Shown here piece by piece: positions 6,731 through 58,591 of a stretch of 64,000 nucleotides of DNA. The translations under genes were made by a program, and so were the position numbers. Numbering within the stretch: the stretch's first letter is position 1; each line of letters begins with the position of its first letter. The notes below the pieces were generated by a model, which made no database searches, had not been told where the DNA came from, and saw only the letters and a program-made list of their open reading frames with translations. Source of the stretch: Bacteroidota bacterium (GTDB lineage: Bacteria > Bacteroidota > Bacteroidia > Chitinophagales > Chitinophagaceae); the NCBI GenBank assembly GCA_023415275.1, contig JAEZLJ010000164.1:3263-67262 (forward strand), written 5' to 3'.

Positions 6731-7699
6731 TCAAACTCTCCCGATCATCATCTTCGTATAGATCTTTGCCGCATTGATCAGCATAGTAGCATCTGTATGC
6801 ATTTTTAGGGCTTCACATATTTGAAGGTGTGTGCTTCGTTTATTCTGGGTGCGGTGCCAGATCAGGTTGGCAATGGTCAATGCATAATGTGCATAGTGCT
6901 TGCTGGCAGCCCTGTACACCTGCTTTCTTTGTTCACGGGGTACCAGGTTTTGAATGGCATTAATGACCCATCGTATGTCGCGTATGTTATGAGCATTAGT
7001 AAAGGAGGCACTGGAAATGGAGTCTGTATGCATGCGGTACTCTGCCAGTATCTCCGGCGTATAAGCCACCTGGTAATGAGCGGCAATACGGGCCCACATT
7101 TCCCAATCTTCTCCATAATTCACACCATAATAACCCCCCAGCTTTTCATATACTTCCCGCTTCACCGTGATGGTGCAGAATTGGAGCCGTTGTTTGCTGG
7201 CGATCTTGAACAGCCAGTTTTCCAGCACCCCATCATGATCCATTTCCTGTGTATGTGTCCATAATATGTTTCCATTTTCATCTATGGTATCATAACGGCA
7301 AAAGGCAGCGCCTATCTGTGGGTATTGACGGAACAAGGATCCCATCTTTTCATAATATCCCTTCCTTACACGGTCGTCTCCATGTAGTAAATGCACCAGC
7401 CGTCCATACGACAAATTAATACAGGTTTCAAAATTCTTAAGGCTGCCCACGTTGCGTGGCTGACGATGGTACTTCACCCTGCCTTTGCCCAATTGCTGAA
7501 CCAGCTCTTCTACATTGGTATCGGTGCTGGCATCATCAACTACCATTATTTGCATTTGATCCTGCCCAGGGTCTTGTTGTAAGATGCTATCCAGTGTGGA
7601 GGGAAGCAGGTGGGAACTGTTATATACAGGTATCATCACGGACCATAGGGGTCGTCCGGGCATGTCAGGGTATGGCTTTATAATGGGTGGTGACTTCAT
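6731..7699 (-). CDS. Glycosyltransferase family 2
   Basis: VMIPVYNSSHLLPSTLDSILQQ...VVDDASTD is the classic GT2 N-terminal signature. Confidence 0.85.
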   Translation of the reverse strand: MKSPPIIKPYPDMPGRPLWSVMIPVYNSSHLLPSTLDSILQQDPGQDQMQIMVVDDASTDTNVEELVQQLGKGRVKYHRQPRNVGSLKNFETCINLSYGRLVHLLHGDDRVRKGYYEKMGSLFRQYPQIGAAFCRYDTIDENGNILWTHTQEMDHDGVLENWLFKIASKQRLQFCTITVKREVYEKLGGYYGVNYGEDWEMWARIAAHYQVAYTPEILAEYRMHTDSISSASFTNAHNIRDIRWVINAIQNLVPREQRKQVYRAASKHYAHYALTIANLIWHRTQNKRSTHLQICEALKMHTDATMLINAAKIYTKMMIGRV

Positions 7700-7849: not shown

Positions 7850-8989
7850 ATGGCGAAGTCCAATTACATAAAACCACTGGATGGCGTGAGGGCTATAGCA
7901 GTTATCCTGGTGCTCATTTGGCACTGGCTACCAAAGGACAGCTACCTGAATGCTGTCCGGACAGGGCCCTTTGGTGTGACGGTGTTTTTTGTGCTGAGTG
8001 GCTTTTTGATTACGCGGATCTTGCTGGAGAACCGCAATGAAGCAGAAGCACTATCCCATTCCACTTCTTCTATCCTTAAGAACTTTTACATACGCCGGGT
8101 ATTGCGCATATTTCCAGCTTATTATTTTACTCTTTTTTTGGTGGAGATCTTTCACCATAGACTGAATCTTCCCTTTCCGCGGCAGGAGCTTTTGGCCAAC
8201 CTGAGTTATACTTCTAACTTCTATGTATTCAACATTCATTCATGGCCTGCCCTGACACCACATTTCTGGTCACTGGCTGTGGAGGAACAGTTTTACCTGG
8301 TATGGCCATTGGCCATGCTGTTCATTCCAAAGAAATTCCTGCTGCACCTGGTGGGCTTATTCATTGGCATAGGCATCATCAGCCAGTTCTTAGCTAGTGA
8401 TCCCGAATTCAGTTATGTATTGCCTCAAACCTGCCTGGATGCTTTGGGATTGGGAGGCTTGCTGGCCTGGATCATGGTTTTCAAACCACATTGGTTGAGA
8501 AAGACCTACCGGTTGATGAACATTGCTGCGCTAGCCGGTTTGCTGATCATGATACTGGATTGGTGCGGATGGCAGTTTTACCACCAATGGAGAATACTGT
8601 ATTCCATTTTTGGCTGCTGGATGATCTGTTATATACTGGTGCATCAACACCAGCGAACAGTAATCCTGAGGTTATTGAACAATCCTTTATTGATAAGGGT
8701 AGGCAAGGTAAGTTATGGCATGTACCTCTATCATGTGTTGTACTTCTATTTGTTGTGGTATAAAACCATGGAACTGTTCAACCGGCTGATCCCTTTCATT
8801 CCGGCTAACTACTACCCTTACCTGTTTTTTGCCATTCATACCTGTGTGCTGTACTTCTGTTGCTGGCTGTCATGGACTTTTATGGGAAAGCCTATACTGA
8901 ACCTGAAGCAGCTGTTCACCTATCAACACAAATCGTCTTCAAATCAAAAGTTGCCACTTACAATAGAAGGAGCCGGCTCACGAACGTAA
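7850..8989 (+). CDS. Acyltransferase family 3 membrane protein
   Basis: It has LDGVRAIAVILVLIWH, FFVLSGFLIT and WSLAVEEQFY motifs and about 10 TM segments. The ATG at 7850 is preferred over the one at 7823. Confidence 0.85.
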   Translation: MAKSNYIKPLDGVRAIAVILVLIWHWLPKDSYLNAVRTGPFGVTVFFVLSGFLITRILLENRNEAEALSHSTSSILKNFYIRRVLRIFPAYYFTLFLVEIFHHRLNLPFPRQELLANLSYTSNFYVFNIHSWPALTPHFWSLAVEEQFYLVWPLAMLFIPKKFLLHLVGLFIGIGIISQFLASDPEFSYVLPQTCLDALGLGGLLAWIMVFKPHWLRKTYRLMNIAALAGLLIMILDWCGWQFYHQWRILYSIFGCWMICYILVHQHQRTVILRLLNNPLLIRVGKVSYGMYLYHVLYFYLLWYKTMELFNRLIPFIPANYYPYLFFAIHTCVLYFCCWLSWTFMGKPILNLKQLFTYQHKSSSNQKLPLTIEGAGSRT

Positions 8990-51073: not shown

Positions 51074-51727
51074 ATGAAATTTTATAATATACTGATAAAA
51101 TACCGCCTGTACATTGGACTGGTGCTGATAGTGGCGGGACTGGCTATGAACCTGACCATCAGTGGCTTCTGGCCCGTATTTCCCTTATACCTGGTAGGAT
51201 TGATTCTGATTGCCGGGCATTTTTTCTTTGGCCCGTTGCGCCTGATACAGGAGCATATGGAAAGCGGGAATATGGAAGAAGCAGAAAAAGTGATCAACTC
51301 CATCCAGTTTCCCAACCTGCTTTATAAGCCCATTCGGTCGGTGTATTATACCCTGAAAGGAAATATTGCCATGATGAAGCAGGACTTCGATTCGGCAGAA
51401 ACCAATATGAAGAAAGGCCTTGACCTGGGCATGCCCATGAAGGAGGCTGAAGGCGCCAGCATGCTGCAAATGGGAATGCTGGCCATGCAAAAGAATGATA
51501 TGAGAGGCGCGGAAAGTTATATTCGCCAGGCGCTTCGTAAAGGCCTGCCCGATAAAGAGAACCATGCTGCCGCCTACCTGCAGATGTGCAGCCTGATGAT
51601 GAATAAAAGGGAATTCAGGGCAGCTAAAGACTTTTTCAGGAAAGCCAAGGCCCTGAAGCCTACGACCCCTCAGATCGTTGACCAGATCAAGCAAATAGAA
51701 AAGTACATATCAAGGATTCCGGGATAA
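51074..51727 (+). CDS. Membrane-anchored TPR-like protein
   Basis: Two N-terminal TM segments are followed by helical repeats with TPR-like A/G/Y spacing. Confidence 0.6.
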   Translation: MKFYNILIKYRLYIGLVLIVAGLAMNLTISGFWPVFPLYLVGLILIAGHFFFGPLRLIQEHMESGNMEEAEKVINSIQFPNLLYKPIRSVYYTLKGNIAMMKQDFDSAETNMKKGLDLGMPMKEAEGASMLQMGMLAMQKNDMRGAESYIRQALRKGLPDKENHAAAYLQMCSLMMNKREFRAAKDFFRKAKALKPTTPQIVDQIKQIEKYISRIPG

Positions 51728-52347
51728 TGAGTCAGCCCACAGGAAAAATAGATACTATAATATTCGACCTGGGAAATGTTTTAGTGGACTGGAGCCCCAC
51801 TTATCTCTTTGATAAACTGTTTCATAAGAAAGAAGAACGAGACTATTTTCTTGAAAACATATGCACGCCCGAATGGCATAATGCACAAGATGCAGGTCGT
51901 TCGCCGGCTGAAGCCACTGAAGAGAAAGTAAAGGAACACCCGGAATGGGAGCATGCCATTAAGGCTTTTTATGCAAGATGGAAAGAAATGTTCATGGGCC
52001 CCATTGAGGGGTCTGTACAAATTCTGCAGGAATTAAAAATGAAAGGCTATCAACTGTATGCCCTTACCAACTGGAATGCTGAACTGTTCAATCAATCACT
52101 GGATGATTTTCCCTTCCTGCAATGGTTTGATGGAAAGATAGTGAGCGGGGCCGTGAAAAAGACCAAGCCTGGAAAAGATATTTACCTGCATCTGTTGGAT
52201 AAATACCATATCATTCCCTCCCAGGCATTATTCATAGATGATAAAAAAGAAAACATTGAAACAGCCGAAAAGCTGGGCATCAAAGGAATTCATTTCATCG
52301 ATCCTGTACAACTAAGAAAAGAACTGGAACAACTCGGTATTTTATAA
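51727..52347 (+). CDS. HAD family hydrolase (subfamily IA-like)
   Basis: It has the DxG nucleophile motif IIFDLGNV, plus LTNW, K-P and FIDD motifs. Its ATG overlaps the preceding TAA by 1 nt. Confidence 0.85.
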   Translation: MSQPTGKIDTIIFDLGNVLVDWSPTYLFDKLFHKKEERDYFLENICTPEWHNAQDAGRSPAEATEEKVKEHPEWEHAIKAFYARWKEMFMGPIEGSVQILQELKMKGYQLYALTNWNAELFNQSLDDFPFLQWFDGKIVSGAVKKTKPGKDIYLHLLDKYHIIPSQALFIDDKKENIETAEKLGIKGIHFIDPVQLRKELEQLGIL

Positions 52348-52358
52348 ACTTGATAAGC

Positions 52359-52970
52359 ATGCAAAGAACTGAAGCTATTGTGTTTGACCTGGGTGGCGTA
52401 TTAATAGACTGGAATCCTTCTTACTTGTTTGACAGGTTATTTGATGATGAAAGCCAGAAGAAGCATTTCTTTGAGCATATCTGCACTTCAGCATGGAACG
52501 AGGAACAGGATGCAGGAAGACCTTTACAGGAAGCAACGAACTTACTGGTAAGCCAACATCCCGAATGGCGACCTTATATAGAAGCTTATTATGGGAGGTG
52601 GGAAGAAATGCTGGGAGGGCCCATACAGGAAACGGTTGACATTTTCAGGGACCTGAAACAATCAGGAAAGTTCCGTTTATATGCATTGACCAACTGGAGC
52701 GGGGAACTGTTTCCTATTGCCCTGGAGAAATACGATTTTCTTCACTGGTTTGATGGCCGGCTGGTGAGTGGAGATGAAAAAATGCGCAAGCCATTTCCCG
52801 AATTCTACCAACTGATGCTTTCGCGGTTTGACCTTCAACCTGAAAACACCTTATTCATAGACGACAATATGCGCAATGTAAAAGCTGCAGAGGATATGGG
52901 CATTAAGGCCTTGCGTTTTGAAGGTCCTCACCAGTTAAGAAAAGAGCTGGAAACACTTGGGTTACTATAA
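52359..52970 (+). CDS. HAD family hydrolase, tandem paralog
   Basis: It has the same motif set and nearly the same length as the preceding gene (IVFDLGGV, LTNW, FIDD). Confidence 0.85.
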   Translation: MQRTEAIVFDLGGVLIDWNPSYLFDRLFDDESQKKHFFEHICTSAWNEEQDAGRPLQEATNLLVSQHPEWRPYIEAYYGRWEEMLGGPIQETVDIFRDLKQSGKFRLYALTNWSGELFPIALEKYDFLHWFDGRLVSGDEKMRKPFPEFYQLMLSRFDLQPENTLFIDDNMRNVKAAEDMGIKALRFEGPHQLRKELETLGLL

Positions 52971-53000: not shown

Positions 53001-54197
53001 ATGACCAGGATCTTGTGCCTGCTGCTGTTGCTTAATTGCACTTCCTGCTATATGATTCGCGCCTATAAGGTGCGGAAGTTCCAGTTGACAGACCCGCAAC
53101 GCATGCCCTATGTAAGTATACCTGCCTCCACCATTCCTTATCGATTTAAAAATGACTCTACTGATGACAGGTATAAGGACATCAAAAGCTACCTCGATTC
53201 CACACTACCCAGGTCATTAACAGCAGCCTTCCTGGTAATAAAGAATGACAGTATCATTTATGAACGATATTTTAACGGTTTTACACAGGACTCAAAACTG
53301 CCTTCTTTTTCAGTAGCCAAATCATTTGTAAGTACACTGATCTCTGTGGCACTGATGGAAGGAAAGATCAGTTCTTTGCAGGATCCCATTACAAAATATC
53401 TACCCGAGCTTATTGAGACCGACAGCCGTTATGAAAGAATTACGCTGCAGCACCTGCTGGATATGAAAAGCGGCCTGCATTTCAATGAAGGCTCCTATGG
53501 ATTGCATGATGATGCTATCAAGCTGGGTTTTAGGCCCAACCTATACAAGCATGTATTAAAAGTAAAAATTGAAAAGGAGCCGGGAAAGGAATTCAAGTAC
53601 CAAAGTATCAATACGGAACTGCTGGCATTGGCCCTGGAAAAAGCAACCGGTAAAAAGATCTCCACCTACCTGCAGGAAAAGATCTGGCAGCCCCTGGGTG
53701 CTGAATTTGAAGCCAACTGGAATGTGGACAGTAAAAAGCATAAGCAGGAAATAGCTTTTGCAGGATTGAATGCTGCTGCCAGGGATTTTGCCAAGCTGGG
53801 GCAATTATATTTAAACAAAGGCACCTGGCGGGGAAAGCAGGTACTGACTCCTGCCTGGGTAAGCACAGTAAACAATGTGGATAGCATGGAAAAGGCCGCA
53901 GGATATAAGAATCAATGGTGGAGCGAATTAATCAACGTTTACTTCCAGGATTCTTTGTCTGCTGACCGTTTTCGCAGGATAACTCCACATTCAGACCAGG
54001 TAAACAAAACAGCAAGAGGCTACCAGGTTCGCTACCGCACCGATGCTTTTAATGCTGAAGGCATTCTCAACCAATTCATTTATATCAAACCTAAAAGCAA
54101 TATAGTGATCGTAAGACTGGGAAGGAATTGGTACCATCCCAACATGTACGCCAGTCAATATATTTACAACCTTGGAGAAAGACTATCCTCATTCTAA
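53001..54197 (+). CDS. Serine hydrolase (beta-lactamase/PBP4-like family)
   Basis: It has the SxxK motif SVAKSF and a beta-lactamase-fold context ([19 protein letters not shown]). Confidence 0.85.
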
Positions 54198-56894
54198 CAC
54201 AGGACGCAACCATCTTTCAGCTTCTTCCAGGCTCATGCTTTTACGATTGGCATAGTCTTCCAGTTGGTCCCTGCCAATCTTGCCCAATCCAAAATAATGG
54301 CTTTGGGGGTGTGCAAAATACCAACCGCAAACAGAAGCCGGTGGATCCATAGCCAGGCTTTCTGTCAATGTGATACCTGCATTTTCGGTAGCATTCAGTA
54401 GTTCAAACAGTTTCCACTTCTCTGTATGATCTGGGCATGCAGGGTAACCAGGTGCAGGTCTGATGCCTTTATATTGCTCTTTGATCAGCTGCTCACTGGT
54501 CAGTGCTTCATTTTTTTCATATCCCCAATATTCCTTGCGCACCTGCTCATGCAGGCATTCTGCAAAGGCTTCCACGAAACGGTCGGCCAATATCTGCACC
54601 AGGATCTTATTGTACTCATCGTGCTGGGATATGAAACGGTCAATATGCTTTTTGGCGCCATGAATAGAGACGGCAAAGGCTCCCATGTAATCATCACCTT
54701 TGGGAGAAACAAAATCTGCCAGTGAATAACTGGGTTGGCCAGCCGCTTTTTTAGATTGCTGCCGAAGCGATTCCAGATTTACTGTGCCCTTATCAGTATG
54801 CAGTGTAATGGTATCCCTGTTATTGCTGGAAGCAGGCCAAAAGCCTATTACGCCATTAGCTGTAAACCATTTCTCTGCAATGATCTGGTCTACCATTTTC
54901 AATGCATCATTGTACAACCGGGTAGCTTCCTTTCCATATCTTTCATCCGATAATACTTCGGGAAATCTTCCAGGCATTTCCCAACCAATAAAGAATGGCC
55001 CCCAGTCAATGTACCGTGCAATGGAGGCAAGATCATAATCCTGCAACACCTTAACGCCTTCTACTTCAGGTTTCACAGGCTGGTAATTATCCCAGTCCAG
55101 TATTTCCTTATTGGCTACTGACTGTTCATAAGGTATCAATACCTTATTCTTTTGCTTATTCAAAAACTGCTGGCGCAATGCATCATATTCAATACCTGTC
55201 TGCTGAAGGAAGCCTTCCTTATTTTCTTTGCTGAGCAGGTTACTGACCACGGTCACACTTCTTGATGCATCCAGCACATATACCACACCCTGCTCATACT
55301 CAGGTGCGATCTTCACAGCGGTATGCGTACGGGAGGTAGTGGCACCGCCAATGAGCAATGGCTGCTTCATATTCCGGCGCTTCATTTCCCTGGCCACATG
55401 CACCATTTCATCCAGCGAAGGCGTAATCAATCCACTTAGTCCTATCACATCCACATTTTCCTTTTCTGCGGTATCCAGTATTTTATCTGCAGGCACCATT
55501 ACACCCATGTCAATGACATCGTAGCCATTGCACCCCAATACCACTCCCACAATATTTTTTCCAATGTCATGCACATCACCTTTCACAGTGGCCATCAGCA
55601 CTTTGGCTGCACCGGCAGTTTCCATTGCACTGGTGCCGGCAGCTTGATGCGCTTTCATCCTTTCTTCTTTTTCTGCTTCGATATAAGGCGTGAGTATGGC
55701 CACAGATTTTTTCATAACCCTGGCACTTTTCACTACCTGCGGGAGGAACATTTTACCACTGCCAAACAGATCACCTACTACGTCCATACCAGCCATCAGG
55801 GGACCTTCGATCACATCCAGTGGCTTTGGATATTTGGTTCTTGCTTCTTCTGTATCAGCATCTATATAATCGGTGATACCATTCACCAGGGCATGCTTCA
55901 GTCGTTCTTCCACCGTAGTATTTCGCCAACTCTCATCTTTTGCTTCTCCTTCCCTGCCTTTGGCTTTTACTGTCTCGGCAAAGTTTACAAGTCTTTCGGT
56001 AGCATCCGGCCTGCGGTTCAGGATCACATCTTCACACAATTCCCTCAACTGTGGTTCTATTTCATCATACACCACCAGCTGCCCGGCATTGACAATTCCC
56101 ATATCCAGACCAGCCCTGATGGCATGATACAGGAATACAGCATGAATAGCTTCCCGCACATGATCGTTGCCCCTGAATGAAAAAGACACATTGCTTACGC
56201 CCCCACTCACCTTAACCAAGGGCATACGTTGCTTGATGATACGTGTGGCCTCTATAAAATCAACTGCGTAATTATTATGTTCTTCTATGCCGGTGGCAAT
56301 GGCAAAGATGTTGGGATCAAAGATGATATCCTGAGGCTCAAACCCCACCTGCTCTGTCAGGATCTTATAGGCTTTCTCACAAATAGATACTCTCCTTTCC
56401 AGGGTATCGGCCTGGCCCTGCTCATCAAAAGCCATCACCACTACAGCCGCACCATAGGCCTGGCAAATAAAAGCCTGTTCAATGAACTTAGCCTCCCCTT
56501 CCTTCATGGAAATGGAGTTAACAATACATTTTCCCTGCACGCATTTCAAGCCTGCTTCAATGATCTCAAACTTGGAAGAATCGATCATGATAGGGATCTT
56601 AGCGATATCCGGCTCTGCCTGCAACAGGTTGAGGAAAGTGGTCATGGCCTTTACTCCATCCAGTAAGGCATCATCCATGTTCACATCCAGCACCTGGGCC
56701 CCGTTCTCCACCTGCTGTCGGGCCACGCTGAGCGCCTCCTCATATTTATTTTCACGTACCAGCCGGGCAAACTTTTTAGATCCCGTTACATTAGTGCGCT
56801 CACCTACATTGATAAAATTGGATTCTGGGCGGATGGTCAACGGCTCCAACCCGGATAGTTTCAGATAAGGCTTGATCGTATTTCGTTCAGTCAT
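54189..56894 (-). CDS. metH: Methionine synthase, C-terminal part (pterin-binding, B12-binding and AdoMet-activation domains)
   Basis: It has LKLSGLEPL...[11 protein letters not shown] (start of the pterin domain), [10 protein letters not shown] (the DxHxxG B12 motif), and the activation domain [12 protein letters not shown]. The ATG at 56894 is preferred over the GTG at 56912. Confidence 0.9.
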
Positions 56895-56905
56895 ATTAAT
56901 AAATT

Positions 56906-57370
56906 GAACCACGGAGGCACAAAGGCACAGAGTGGCACAGCGATTATAAAATCATTCGTTTAATACCATTCTTTATTAATGGTACATGGAAATTTATAAG
57001 ATATCCCAGTCGTTTGTTAGTTAATTTAAGATAACTGAGCATTTGAGCTTGCCAAACATGATGAGTATCTTCCTGGGCTTTTAATTCAAGTATGATAAGA
57101 TCCTCAACCATTATGTCAATTCTCAATCCATCAGCAATGACAAGATTATTATATTTAATTTCTACAGATTGTTGCCTGGTGTAAGCAATATTTCTTACAT
57201 CCAATTCATGGCAAAAACATTTTTCATAGATACTCTCTAACAACCCTGGTCCTAATGCTTTATGAATATGAAAAGCAATATCAACAACCTGCTCTGCCAG
57301 CCATTGTTCTCTTGTTGTTAGAGGATCAAAATGCTCTGTGTAAATCTGTGTCATTGTGTCTCTGTGGTTC
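56906..57370 (-). mobile_element. Putative inverted-repeat-flanked GxxExxY cassette between the metH halves
   Basis: Arms of 37/38 nt at 56906-42 and 57333-70 are inverted copies with 29 of 37 positions identical. They bracket a single ORF. Mobility itself is not demonstrated. Confidence 0.4.
56944..57354 (-). CDS. GxxExxY protein (PDDEXK_3 nuclease-fold family)
   Basis: It has [17 protein letters not shown] (the G-x-x-E-x-x-Y motif), then [14 protein letters not shown] (D...E-x-K nuclease-like core) and GYLINF. It starts at ATG 57354 or TTG 57372. Confidence 0.8.
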
Positions 57371-57375
57371 AAAAT

Positions 57376-58383
57376 TTACGATAGTTCCTTTTCGAGCATA
57401 GGTAAGGGACGGGGTTGGATTTGGCGCACGTGTTCCGCGATGTGCCTGATATGGTCGGGGGTGGTGCCGCAGCACCCACCTACAATGTTTACAAATCCGG
57501 CTTCGGCCCAGTCTTCAATGAAGTGAGCCGTTTCCTCAGGTTGCTCATCATATTCACCCATGGCATTGGGAAGTCCTGCATTCGGGTACGCCGAAGTATA
57601 ACATTCAGCTAACTGGCTCAATTCCTCTATATGGGGCCGCATTTCTTTGGCACCCAGGGCACAATTCAATCCTACGCTTAATGGGTGGGCATGCCTAATA
57701 GAAGCATAGAAAGCTTCCAAAGTTTGTCCACTCAGTGTTCTGCCTGAAGCATCGGTAATAGTGCCACTGATCATGATAGGCAGCTCCTTTTGATTGACAT
57801 CCCTGAAGTATTTTTTGATGGCAAAGATGGCAGCCTTGGCATTCAGCGTATCGAAAATGGTCTCTATCAATAACAGATCCACGCCACCATCCACTAAACC
57901 TTTTACCTGTTCATAATAAGCCTCTGCGGCTTCATCAAAGGTCAATGCCCTGTATCCGGGATTGTTTACATCAGGAGACAGCGATAATGTTTTATTTAAG
58001 GGACCAATGGCACCTGCCACGAATTTTTCCTCACCCGAACCTACCAGCAGGGTGGCTTCCTTGGCAATCTTCGCTGCGGCCACATTGATCTCATAGGCCA
58101 GGTCCTGCATGCCATAATCGGCAAGCGACACCTTGTTGGCATTGAAGGTATTGGTCTCTATGATATCGGCTCCGGCCTCCAGATAATGCCCATGGATCTC
58201 CCGGATAATATGAGGTTGGGTAAGACAAAGCAGGTCATTATTACCTTTCACATCACTAGGCCAGTTTTTAAAACGCTCTCCCCGGTAGTCTTCTTCCTTG
58301 AGATGATAGCGTTGTATCATGGTGCCCATGGCGCCGTCAATGATCAGAATGCGATGATTCAAAAGCTCACGGATATCTTTCAT
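57376..58383 (-). CDS. metH: Homocysteine S-methyltransferase domain protein (N-terminal module of split MetH)
   Basis: It has [10 protein letters not shown], the zinc-ligand contexts LNCALG and [10 protein letters not shown], and about 335 aa matching the MetH Hcy-binding module. Confidence 0.9.
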
Positions 58384-58591
58384 AATAATTCGTTTAGACA
58401 AAATAGCGAACCTGGATATGGCTGAAGGCTGGTGATGCTAATAAACGAGGAATCCCTGGAGTGTGAGTTTCTACGTTTATTAGTTCTGTTGAGGCCGAAC
58501 AATAAACAAATCCGCCTGCGAGGCACAAATGTAAAAAATATAAACGGGAATGGTAAAAAGATTACAACTGGCAACCTATCAATAAGGAAAA

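Follow-up and report, generated by a model that had tools for sequence, protein, structure and literature searches.

The locus described here raises the question of how a small gene with a nuclease-like motif came to lie exactly between the two halves of a split methionine synthase gene, metH, and whether it divided that gene or arrived after the division had taken place. The locus lies in a 64,000-nucleotide stretch of a Chitinophagaceae genome (Bacteroidota bacterium, GenBank assembly GCA_023415275.1, contig JAEZLJ010000164.1, positions 3,263 to 67,262 of the forward strand), which we refer to as the window, and the small gene belongs to the GxxExxY (PDDEXK_3) family. A sequence-only reading of this DNA had offered two answers: either an already split metH had served as a landing site, or the insertion had created or fixed the split. 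In this study, we provide evidence for the first of these alternatives, and we conclude that the gene is carried by a cassette with complementary arms, which, judging from the loci compared here, is a promoterless-looking mobile gene unit that is widespread, barely described, and located between the genes of bacterial operons.

The two genes that flank the insertion, metH-N and metH-C, together constitute one full-length MetH, as the sequence-only reading had proposed, since they map contiguously to the 1234-position MetH profile PRK09490; metH-N covers positions 8 to 343 and metH-C covers positions 338 to 1229 (1507.9 bits; NCBIfam). The metH-N product matched the Pfam family S-methyl_trans (3.4e-103); its gene starts with an ATG at position 58383, the mechanical start of the open reading frame (ORF) being an in-frame TTG further upstream at position 58401, and its orthologue in a related record is called as a protein of 335 amino acids (aa). 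The metH-C gene, which also has an ATG start codon, encodes the Pfam domains Pterin_bind, B12-binding_2, B12-binding, and Met_synt_B12. None of the MetH modules is missing, and the homocysteine, pterin, B12-cap, B12, and activation modules follow one another in canonical order. Escherichia coli MetH is a single polypeptide with the same domain order; the MetH of the window resembles this type in that all four or five modules are found in the canonical order and the whole profile is covered, but the E. coli-type enzyme is one chain, whereas that of the window is encoded by two genes, split between the homocysteine and pterin modules. The cut point directly precedes the LSGLEPL start of the pterin module, and the junction lies in the interdomain linker, where it had been placed previously. 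Both halves and the middle ORF are on the minus strand, and the interval between the halves (positions 56895 to 57375) is a gap of exactly 481 bp, as reported.

The age of the split was assessed by comparison of the 80 closest metH-N loci from species-representative genomes, all of which were from Chitinophagaceae (best match, 91% identity); the 79 loci that contain both metH halves were informative. At all 79 loci metH is split, with its own metH-N stop codon and its own metH-C ATG, and a fused gene was found at none of them, irrespective of whether a cassette was present. Most of the spacers range from -13 to approximately 125 nt and the majority are cassette free; many measure 0 to 30 nt or have a stop codon that overlaps the start codon, several comprising no more than TAATG or TAA, a few bases, and ATG, and these lack any remnant of an arm. 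The split therefore predates the cassette, and the comparison indicates that the two-gene metH is the ancestral state in the Chitinophagaceae and that the cassette entered an existing intergenic spacer. The only support for the converse idea, that insertion of the cassette split a formerly fused metH, is positional, namely, the placement of the cassette exactly at the interdomain linker; against these relatives, we regard that idea as extremely improbable. The sequence-only reading had also held that an insertion would be contradicted by an invariant three-gene arrangement with no empty sites and no further copies. Instead, empty-site alleles are the majority and all of them are split, and the same lineage is found at other loci, such as between pxpA and mntH in Flavisolibacter nicotianae, with approximately 50 other contexts for the cassette class. 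Its description of the middle gene as a selfish-looking insert, rather than a part of MetH, has likewise held up.

The cassette in the metH gap consists of an arm, an ORF, and a second arm (Table 1). A 37-nt imperfect inverted repeat, assembled from 8-nt CACNNAGN units and 81% complementary, lies on either side of the ORF. Its start codon (positions 57352 to 57354) sits within the 5' arm, where CACAGAG, ACACAATG, and ACACAGAT units surround the ATG, and this tandem-repeat layout is general across loci. The 3' arm begins 3 nt past the stop codon of the ORF and ends with GTGGTTCAA, 9 nt short of the metH-C ATG. The GC content of the cassette is 35%, compared to 47% in both metH genes, and the flanking sequences, TTGAA and TTCAA, are inverted rather than direct. 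Only one copy is present in the 64-kb window, in which no second cassette and no further arms were found. Rfam gave no match to the cassette; across the whole window, it detected one tRNA only and no rRNA. No terminator-like site was found in the metH gap, and no promoter was recognizable in the cassette in a scan that used the sigma-70 consensus, which Bacteroidota do not use. Because the gap has no terminator-like site and cassettes show a strong sense bias (see below), cotranscription of the cassette with metH is plausible from the arrangement of the genes.

Pfam, NCBIfam, and the homologue alignments all agree with the previous description of the middle gene as a GxxExxY ORF of 136 to 142 aa with a D...ExK core, the longer form being read from an alternative TTG start (positions 56944 to 57372; 142 aa). 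The protein matched PF13366 (PDDEXK_3; 123.8 bits against a cutoff of 22; profile positions 3 to 117 of 117; E = 6e-36) and TIGR04256 (GxxExxY; 129 bits against a cutoff of 35; profile positions 3 to 116 of 116; E = 1.1e-37). In the homologue alignments, the motif G37-L-L-E40-S-I-Y43 (GLLESIY), D80, and the E90-L-K92 core are invariant or nearly so, and homologues of 136 aa cover the full length of the ORF. The ratio of nonsynonymous to synonymous substitution rates (dN/dS), calculated against orthologous metH-gap copies, was 0.08 to 0.09, with dS saturated; the ORF is therefore maintained by purifying selection. An AlphaFold2 model (predicted local distance difference test [pLDDT] score of 88) showed the order of helices and strands expected for the PD-(D/E)XK fold (alpha-beta-beta-beta-alpha-beta), and no sequence relative of the protein was found in the PDB. 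Two other identities for the gene were considered and rejected: a defense system, for which PADLOC gave only a weak Cas4-fold match (E = 0.002), and a phage gene, for which PHROGs gave no match.

Evidence for mobility came from the metH loci themselves. A hidden Markov model scan across approximately 867 kb of metH loci, together with the window, detected GxxExxY genes only in the metH gap, and the junction is occupied by cassettes of two unrelated lineages; the cassette of locus L068 has 42% identity, different arms, and a position in a distant clade. An 82%-identical metagenome relative (L163) and Flavisolibacter tropicus (CP011390, at 3.13 Mb) carry the cassette in the metH gap with the synteny of the window. 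At three Flavisolibacter loci without the ORF (L011, L014, and L016), a solo 3' arm (...GTGGTTCAA) is found at the orthologous distance from the metH-C ATG, and L007, also without the ORF, has a mini hairpin (AACCACC...GGTGGTT) at the same site. These gaps lie at approximately positions 7020 to 7110 in L007, L014, and L016; in L011, the solo arm is at positions 8180 to 8228, with an IS200-like element upstream. The solo arms and the mini hairpin represent scars left by the loss of a cassette. The metH gap of F. nicotianae contains a solo 3' arm only, and in this species the window's lineage is located between pxpA (LamB_YcsF) and mntH (Nramp transporter) (RBCI01000001; L161:3985-4470). That copy has 69% protein identity to the window ORF and the same arm design, with the start codon in CACAATGACACA and CCGTGGTTCAA at the 3' end, and it directly abuts the upstream stop codon (CAATAA followed at once by AGCCAC); these features suggest a relocation within the genus. 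In a neighbor-joining tree, which had no bootstrap support, metH-gap copies were interleaved with copies from other operons, and the sequence relationships suggest at least two independent arrivals at the metH junction as well as movement between junctions. Since the cassette is patchily distributed in close relatives, since the same lineage occurs at other junctions and a second lineage in metH, and since hairpin and solo-arm derivatives exist, we conclude that it is mobile on evolutionary time scales.

The same cassette design was found far beyond metH. A metagenome scan in which the query was an alignment of metH-gap proteins yielded 80 further loci, and approximately 50 different genomic contexts are now represented, including the asnS-rpoN, galT-galK, and trpG-trpD junctions and those between a LigT-like gene and a radical-SAM gene and between the genes for cyanophycinase and cyanophycin synthetase. 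Arms are nearly universal at these loci: tandem 8-nt units, for example AACCACAAAGGCACGAAGACACAAAG, precede the start codon, which lies within or beside the 5' arm, and the complement directly follows the stop codon; a simple arm detector found 126 arms in 310 kb of these loci, compared to 10 in 867 kb of metH loci. The upstream gene shares the orientation of the cassette in 57 of 63 cases and the downstream gene in 53 of 60; this holds for both neighbors at once in 42 of 52 cases (expectation, 56%; P = 2e-4), and the gaps are only tens of nucleotides long. In the alphaproteobacterium Sphingomonas parapaucimobilis (NZ_CP155749; L166:2449-2914), a cassette lies between fabD and fabG in an essential fatty acid operon, its arms (CACGCGAAGGCGCGAGGACGCGAAG and CGCGTCTTCGCGGCTTCGCGTG) recoded to the GC content of the host with CGCGAAG-type units and the annotated coding sequence continuing through the 3' arm; in Bernardetia (L167:2481-2970), a cassette lies between ade and a guanylyltransferase gene. 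Furthermore, ORF-less hairpins of the same units (arm, 16- to 50-nt loop, arm) are found beside cassettes and in tandem arrays, and near-identical ORF-less copies have been amplified within single contigs; they behave like derivatives of the type known as MITEs (miniature inverted-repeat transposable elements). The GxxExxY family comprises 14,257 clusters at 50% identity (E <= 1e-3), with 7 matches in the plasmid collection and 0 in the phage collection, and the element is therefore not typical phage or plasmid cargo. Rfam showed no rRNA context at any of the 20 GxxExxY loci scanned; hence, a direct link to the intervening sequences (IVSs) of 23S rRNA was not found in this sample. The searchable literature, the coverage of which is incomplete, yielded no account of GxxExxY cassettes, of the arms, or of the habit of occupying operon junctions.

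Several other features of these loci were recorded. At L131:60-1200, L113:2960-3815, and L130:2480-3345, GxxExxY ORFs lie within tandem arrays of near-identical ORF-less hairpins of approximately 124 nt. Some proteins of 260 to 295 aa (P0122, P0127, P0128, P0131, P0138, and others) have two tandem GxxExxY domains and may represent fused neighboring cassettes. Gathering-level Rfam matches near cassettes were to Acido-Lenti-1 RNA and DUF805b RNA (L113:4114-4159; L097:1336-1370 and 2107-2141). A putative 1.1-kb cassette of a non-GxxExxY type at L067 was rejected when it proved to be two separate ORF-less hairpins.

The arms covary. The minimum-energy fold pairs the arms in six of six metH-gap cassettes, with 22 to 49 long-range base pairs, and in the RNA of the window cassette the arms pair around the whole ORF and the sequence folds better than its shuffled versions (z = -3.7). 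The 5' arm pairs better with its own 3' arm than with foreign arms (mean, -29.2 versus -20.6 kcal/mol), and when all arms were ranked as partners, the native one came first in 12 of 78 cases, compared to approximately 1 expected. Covariation was examined in an ungapped alignment (A2) of 24 arm pairs anchored at their termini; these pairs were chosen by a pattern that requires the terminal motif on both sides, with the variable positions free to mismatch. In this alignment, 82% of the cells are paired, compared to 72% in shuffles (0 of 500 reaching the observed value) and 35 to 44% with slid partners. Two-sided changes were found in 20 of the 24 pairs, for example from A-U to G-C at terminal positions, and the terminal variants ACCAC/GTGGT, GCCAC/GTGGC, and ACCGC/GCGGT all occur. 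Conservation of the termini AACCAC...GTGGTT extends over unrelated sites and over phyla, and their consensus is TT(A/G)AACCAC...GTGGTT(A/C)AA.

The metH junction also receives other genes. The metH gaps of relatives contain an IS200-like transposase, YhcG/DUF1016 nucleases, an ORF6N protein, and a Barstar homologue (Table 1), and the occupants of these gaps indicate that the junction is a hotspot, a general and recurrent landing pad for unrelated small genes of the selfish type. As a separate observation, a conserved hydrophobic micro-ORF of 30 to 32 aa is present in a metH spacer of 92 to 122 nt in at least 16 of the 79 Chitinophagaceae genomes (L031, L033, L035, L043, L047, L049 to L051, L056, L057, L061, L064, L066, and L077 to L079; approximately positions 7000 to 7130 at most of these loci). 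It has the approximate consensus MTTPQLLIxxSILILIVNNFSxIKKLFVKKNx, in many cases its start codon shares bases with the stop codon of metH-N (ATGA), and it may encode an unannotated small membrane protein that is cotranslated with MetH. Beside the metH locus of the window, two similar, paralogous ORFs of 206 aa lie 2 nt apart on the plus strand (positions 51727 to 52347 and 52350 to 52970); related loci have orthologues of them with the annotation HAD-family hydrolase, and the pair looks like a tandem duplication.

Table 1. Features of the split metH locus in the window and occupants of the metH gap in related loci
Feature	Position	Strand	Basis
metH-N, homocysteine S-methyltransferase module of cobalamin-dependent methionine synthase	57376..58383	-	ORF; PF02574; PRK09490 positions 8-343
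Spacer ATT, 3 nt, from metH-N stop TAA to outer end of 5' arm	57373..57375	-	Sequence
Whole cassette (arm, ORF, arm), 469 bp	56904..57372	-	Inverted repeat; GC content
5' arm TTGAACCACAGAGACACAATGACACAGATTTACACAG, tandem CACNNAGN-type units	57336..57372	-	Inverted repeat; fold; conserved terminus AACCAC
GxxExxY/PDDEXK_3 ORF, 136 aa from ATG, stop TAA at 56944-56946	56944..57354	-	ORF; Pfam; NCBIfam
3' arm CTGTGCCACTCTGTGCCTTTGTGCCTCCGTGGTTCAA, complementary to 5' arm	56904..56940	-	Inverted repeat; fold
Spacer, A/T rich, 9 nt, TTTATTAAT, between 3' arm and metH-C ATG	56895..56903	-	Sequence
metH-C, 901 aa; pterin-binding, B12-cap, B12-binding, and activation modules	54189..56894	-	ORF; Pfam; PRK09490
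GxxExxY cassette in metH gap (among 80 loci)	L004, L020, L027, L041, L046, L068
IS200-like Y1 transposase with own GGCTCCGCAGGAGCC hairpins in metH gap	L011:7033-8228, L013:7036-7722
YhcG/DUF1016 PDDEXK nuclease in metH gap	L024:7015-8098, L036:4113-5192
ORF6N protein in metH gap	L044:7030-7636
Barstar homologue in metH gap	L069:1178-1466

The organization of the cassette is reminiscent of several known elements. ORF-bearing IVSs of 23S rRNA are known in Coxiella, Leptospira, and Brucella; they carry an S23p ORF and are excised by RNase III. The IVS of Coxiella burnetii is 428 to 444 nt long and has complementary termini that form a 28-bp terminal stem, RNase III cuts in mid-stem, and tandem heptamers (three copies of GACAGAT) are located just upstream of the ORF start codon (PMC4990558). 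With its 469 nt, the cassette is similar in size, and the two elements share a loop ORF of approximately 120 to 140 aa, complementary termini with a stem of approximately 28 to 37 bp, tandem 7- to 8-nt repeats before the start codon (of the CACAGAG type in the cassette), sense orientation in the host transcript, and a patchy, selfish-looking distribution. However, the IVS resides in the 23S rRNA gene (helix 25 or 45) and its ORF encodes the S23p four-helix bundle, whereas the cassette is located in an mRNA operon junction between protein-coding genes and its ORF encodes a PD-(D/E)XK protein of the GxxExxY family; in addition, RNase III excision is a feature of the IVS, whereas for the cassette it is a prediction. 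Since it has neither the rRNA location nor the S23p ORF, we call the cassette IVS-like rather than an IVS.

There are also parallels with repetitive extragenic palindromic (REP) sequences, whose hairpin-forming doublets (REPINs) depend on REP-associated tyrosine transposases (RAYTs), and with pairs of MITEs and their parent elements: in each case, hairpin-forming repeats lie on both sides of a small gene, copies without the ORF are dispersed or amplified within the same genomes, and the elements are chromosomal and intergenic. The RAYT enzyme is a Y1 HUH transposase, though, and that of the cassette has a PD-(D/E)XK fold; REPs are GTAG tagged, whereas the cassette arms are tandem 8-nt units; a RAYT is a single domesticated copy, whereas the cassette gene is found in many sites and lineages; and no target-site duplication was found for the cassette. 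The Y1_Tnp genes with GGCTCCGCAGGAGCC hairpins at the metH junction of L011 and L013 are a different element from the cassette. Transposons with terminal inverted repeats (TIRs), like MITEs, share with it inverted repeats with conserved tips, multiple sites, and internally deleted copies, but would be expected to have target-site duplications, and none was consistent in 36 cassettes. Integron cassettes resemble the metH-type cassette in being co-oriented, in having no recognizable promoter of their own and an upstream host promoter, and in their occasional tandem arrays; moreover, attC sites and the cassette arms both keep structure, by covariation, rather than sequence, and both fold better on one strand. 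Unlike integrons, which have a platform of integrase, attI, and Pc, the cassette is accompanied by none of these and has housekeeping genes as neighbors, and whereas attC is a 3' hairpin, the cassette arms bracket the ORF and the sites are ordinary operon junctions chromosome-wide. Finally, free-standing homing endonuclease genes are likewise small nuclease-fold genes between cotranscribed genes with a presence/absence polymorphism, but the cassette occupies approximately 50 junctions without a common target, has bracketing arms, and has 0 matches in the phage collection.

Based on these data, we have high confidence in the descriptive part of our interpretation, namely, that a mobile, sense-oriented cassette with covarying arms and a selected nuclease-fold ORF occupies the preexisting spacer of an ancestrally split metH. 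To the whole, that is, the mobile cassette together with the mechanism that we propose for it, we assign a probability of approximately 0.5. According to this mechanism, transcription that starts at the metH promoter would read through the cassette and thereby express it. The arms would pair in the RNA to form a stem of approximately 30 bp, so that no more than approximately 12 nt would separate the stop codon of metH-N from the start codon of metH-C, and the stem would be a likely RNase III substrate, as in the ORF-bearing 23S IVSs; if so, the insertion would cost MetH expression little. The small nuclease would act on the arm structure and thereby spread or maintain the element, as a RAYT does with REPINs or a transposase with MITEs. 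We also consider, as a more doubtful extension, that GxxExxY cassettes are phylum-spanning "operon introns," selfish units of nuclease and hairpin with an rRNA-IVS-like design. Such units would have colonized the junctions of cotranscribed genes, among them essential genes such as metH, fabD/fabG, and trpG/trpD; their arms would render the insertion harmless, either through the stem and RNase III excision or through the proximity of stop and start codons, and, when folded on one DNA strand, would be the nuclease substrate by which both full elements and ORF-less hairpins are mobilized, making the unit a PD-(D/E)XK counterpart of the RAYT/REPIN system.

A number of observations weigh against the proposed mechanism. 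The Foldseek matches in the PDB are weak and generic (E >= 8e-3; template modeling scores <= 0.5) and single out no particular nuclease subfamily, and the best of them are all PD-(D/E)XK nucleases (lambda exonuclease, Cas4 SSO0001, Hjc, and the tRNA-splicing endonuclease EndA); the function of the GxxExxY family has been given as "Unknown" (PMC3424549). No consistent target-site duplication (direct repeat) was found in 36 cassettes, nor was a defined target sequence, and in a minority of loci hairpins flank the ORF (in the order 3'-type arm, ORF, 5'-type arm) instead of enclosing it. A cut by RNase III in the stem would remove the start codon of the cassette, which lies inside the arm. Furthermore, the non-Watson-Crick cells of the arms, read on the sense strand, comprise 41 A:C or C:A cells versus 15 G:U cells. 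The unpaired A(5'):C(3') cells occur mostly at the position after AAG and periodically, at every second unit junction; the single-nucleotide loops of ORF-less hairpins comprise 20 A:C and 0 C:A (L039, L067, L089, L113, L128, L130, L131, and L149); and in the window the antisense strand gives a more continuous helix, in which A:C cells become G:U or G:T wobbles. This excess is the reverse of what would be expected for a sense-RNA stem, and our confidence in an RNA-only model is therefore lowered. The asymmetry is at least as compatible with a role at the DNA level or of the bottom strand as with a sense-RNA stem; possible explanations are that the bottom DNA strand is the substrate, that the sense stem is deliberately weakened, or that the left and right ends differ in function. 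Given this difference between the strands, and given that a cut would take away the start codon of the cassette itself, we rate RNA processing alone as perhaps somewhat less likely than not.

One alternative is that the cassette is a transposable element acting purely at the DNA level, whose arms are TIRs bound as double-stranded DNA by its own PD-(D/E)XK nuclease in the role of transposase, whose ORF-less hairpins are MITEs, and whose RNA pairing is incidental. PD-(D/E)XK enzymes act in transposition elsewhere, for example, TnsA of Tn7. The conservation of the AACCAC...GTGGTT termini over unrelated sites and phyla, the amplification of near-identical ORF-less copies in single contigs, and the consistent difference between the left and right ends (A versus G at the unit junctions), which is often seen in transposon ends, would all be accounted for, and the A:C excess speaks against selection on a sense-RNA stem; in addition, PDDEXK_2 has been listed as a putative transposase (PMC3424549). 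Nevertheless, there is no target-site duplication, the TTGAA/TTCAA flanks in the window being inverted; a single-domain protein of 125 aa is very small for a transposase; and the sense orientation of 81 to 90% of the cassettes needs an extra explanation, such as selection for expression. It would also be unusual for protein-read TIRs to vary while complementarity within each cassette is retained, unless protein and arms coevolve, and on balance we consider this alternative unlikely. An integron-like or IS200-like single-strand route, in which the folded bottom strand is the recombination substrate and strand selectivity fixes the orientation, would make use of the more perfect antisense helix, in which the A:C cells become G:T wobbles, and would suit the lack of a recognizable promoter, the co-oriented neighbors, and the occasional tandem arrays; attC sites, too, conserve structure, not sequence. 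We regard this route as improbable, since the cassettes at the metH, pxpA/mntH, and fab loci have neither an integrase gene nor an HUH gene beside them, the arms bracket the ORF as a 400-nt loop with no local 3' hairpin, and the processes that usually generate single-stranded DNA leave the sense strand of codirectional genes exposed.

Equally improbable, in our view, is a domesticated host gene, whose product would serve the cell in RNA processing, defense, or assistance to MetH and which would simply be encoded in an operon. The dN/dS of 0.08 to 0.09 over saturated synonymous divergence and the conserved site within Flavisolibacter are what such a gene would show, and the family, with 14,257 clusters at 50% identity, is both very large and ancient, is rarely found on plasmids, and had no match in the phage collection. 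However, MetH does not require the gene, since the metH loci of most relatives are without it; operons of unrelated function carry the same gene; the gene occurs patchily and has left scars; its GC content sets it apart from the surrounding locus; and no defense model matched it beyond the weak Cas4-fold hit (E = 0.002).

Returning to the mobile cassette, we view the metH-gap finding as an IVS- or MITE-like element with a new cargo and a new niche. For metH itself, the data show the two-gene form to be ancestral in the Chitinophagaceae and the junction between the halves to be a recurrent landing pad. For the GxxExxY family, which has more than 14,000 clusters at 50% identity, this locus suggests an identity, that of the cargo of a small hairpin-bracketed element inside operons. 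If this interpretation is correct, it would explain many spurious annotated N-terminal extensions ("HRDT," "TQRHR," and "HKGTK") and shadow ORFs of the "LCVSVV" type, and it may point to a new class of enzyme in the mobilization of hairpin repeats. It would also carry over to mRNAs a puzzle that rRNA intervening sequences have posed for 30 years and provide a testable model for how bacteria tolerate insertions inside essential operons.

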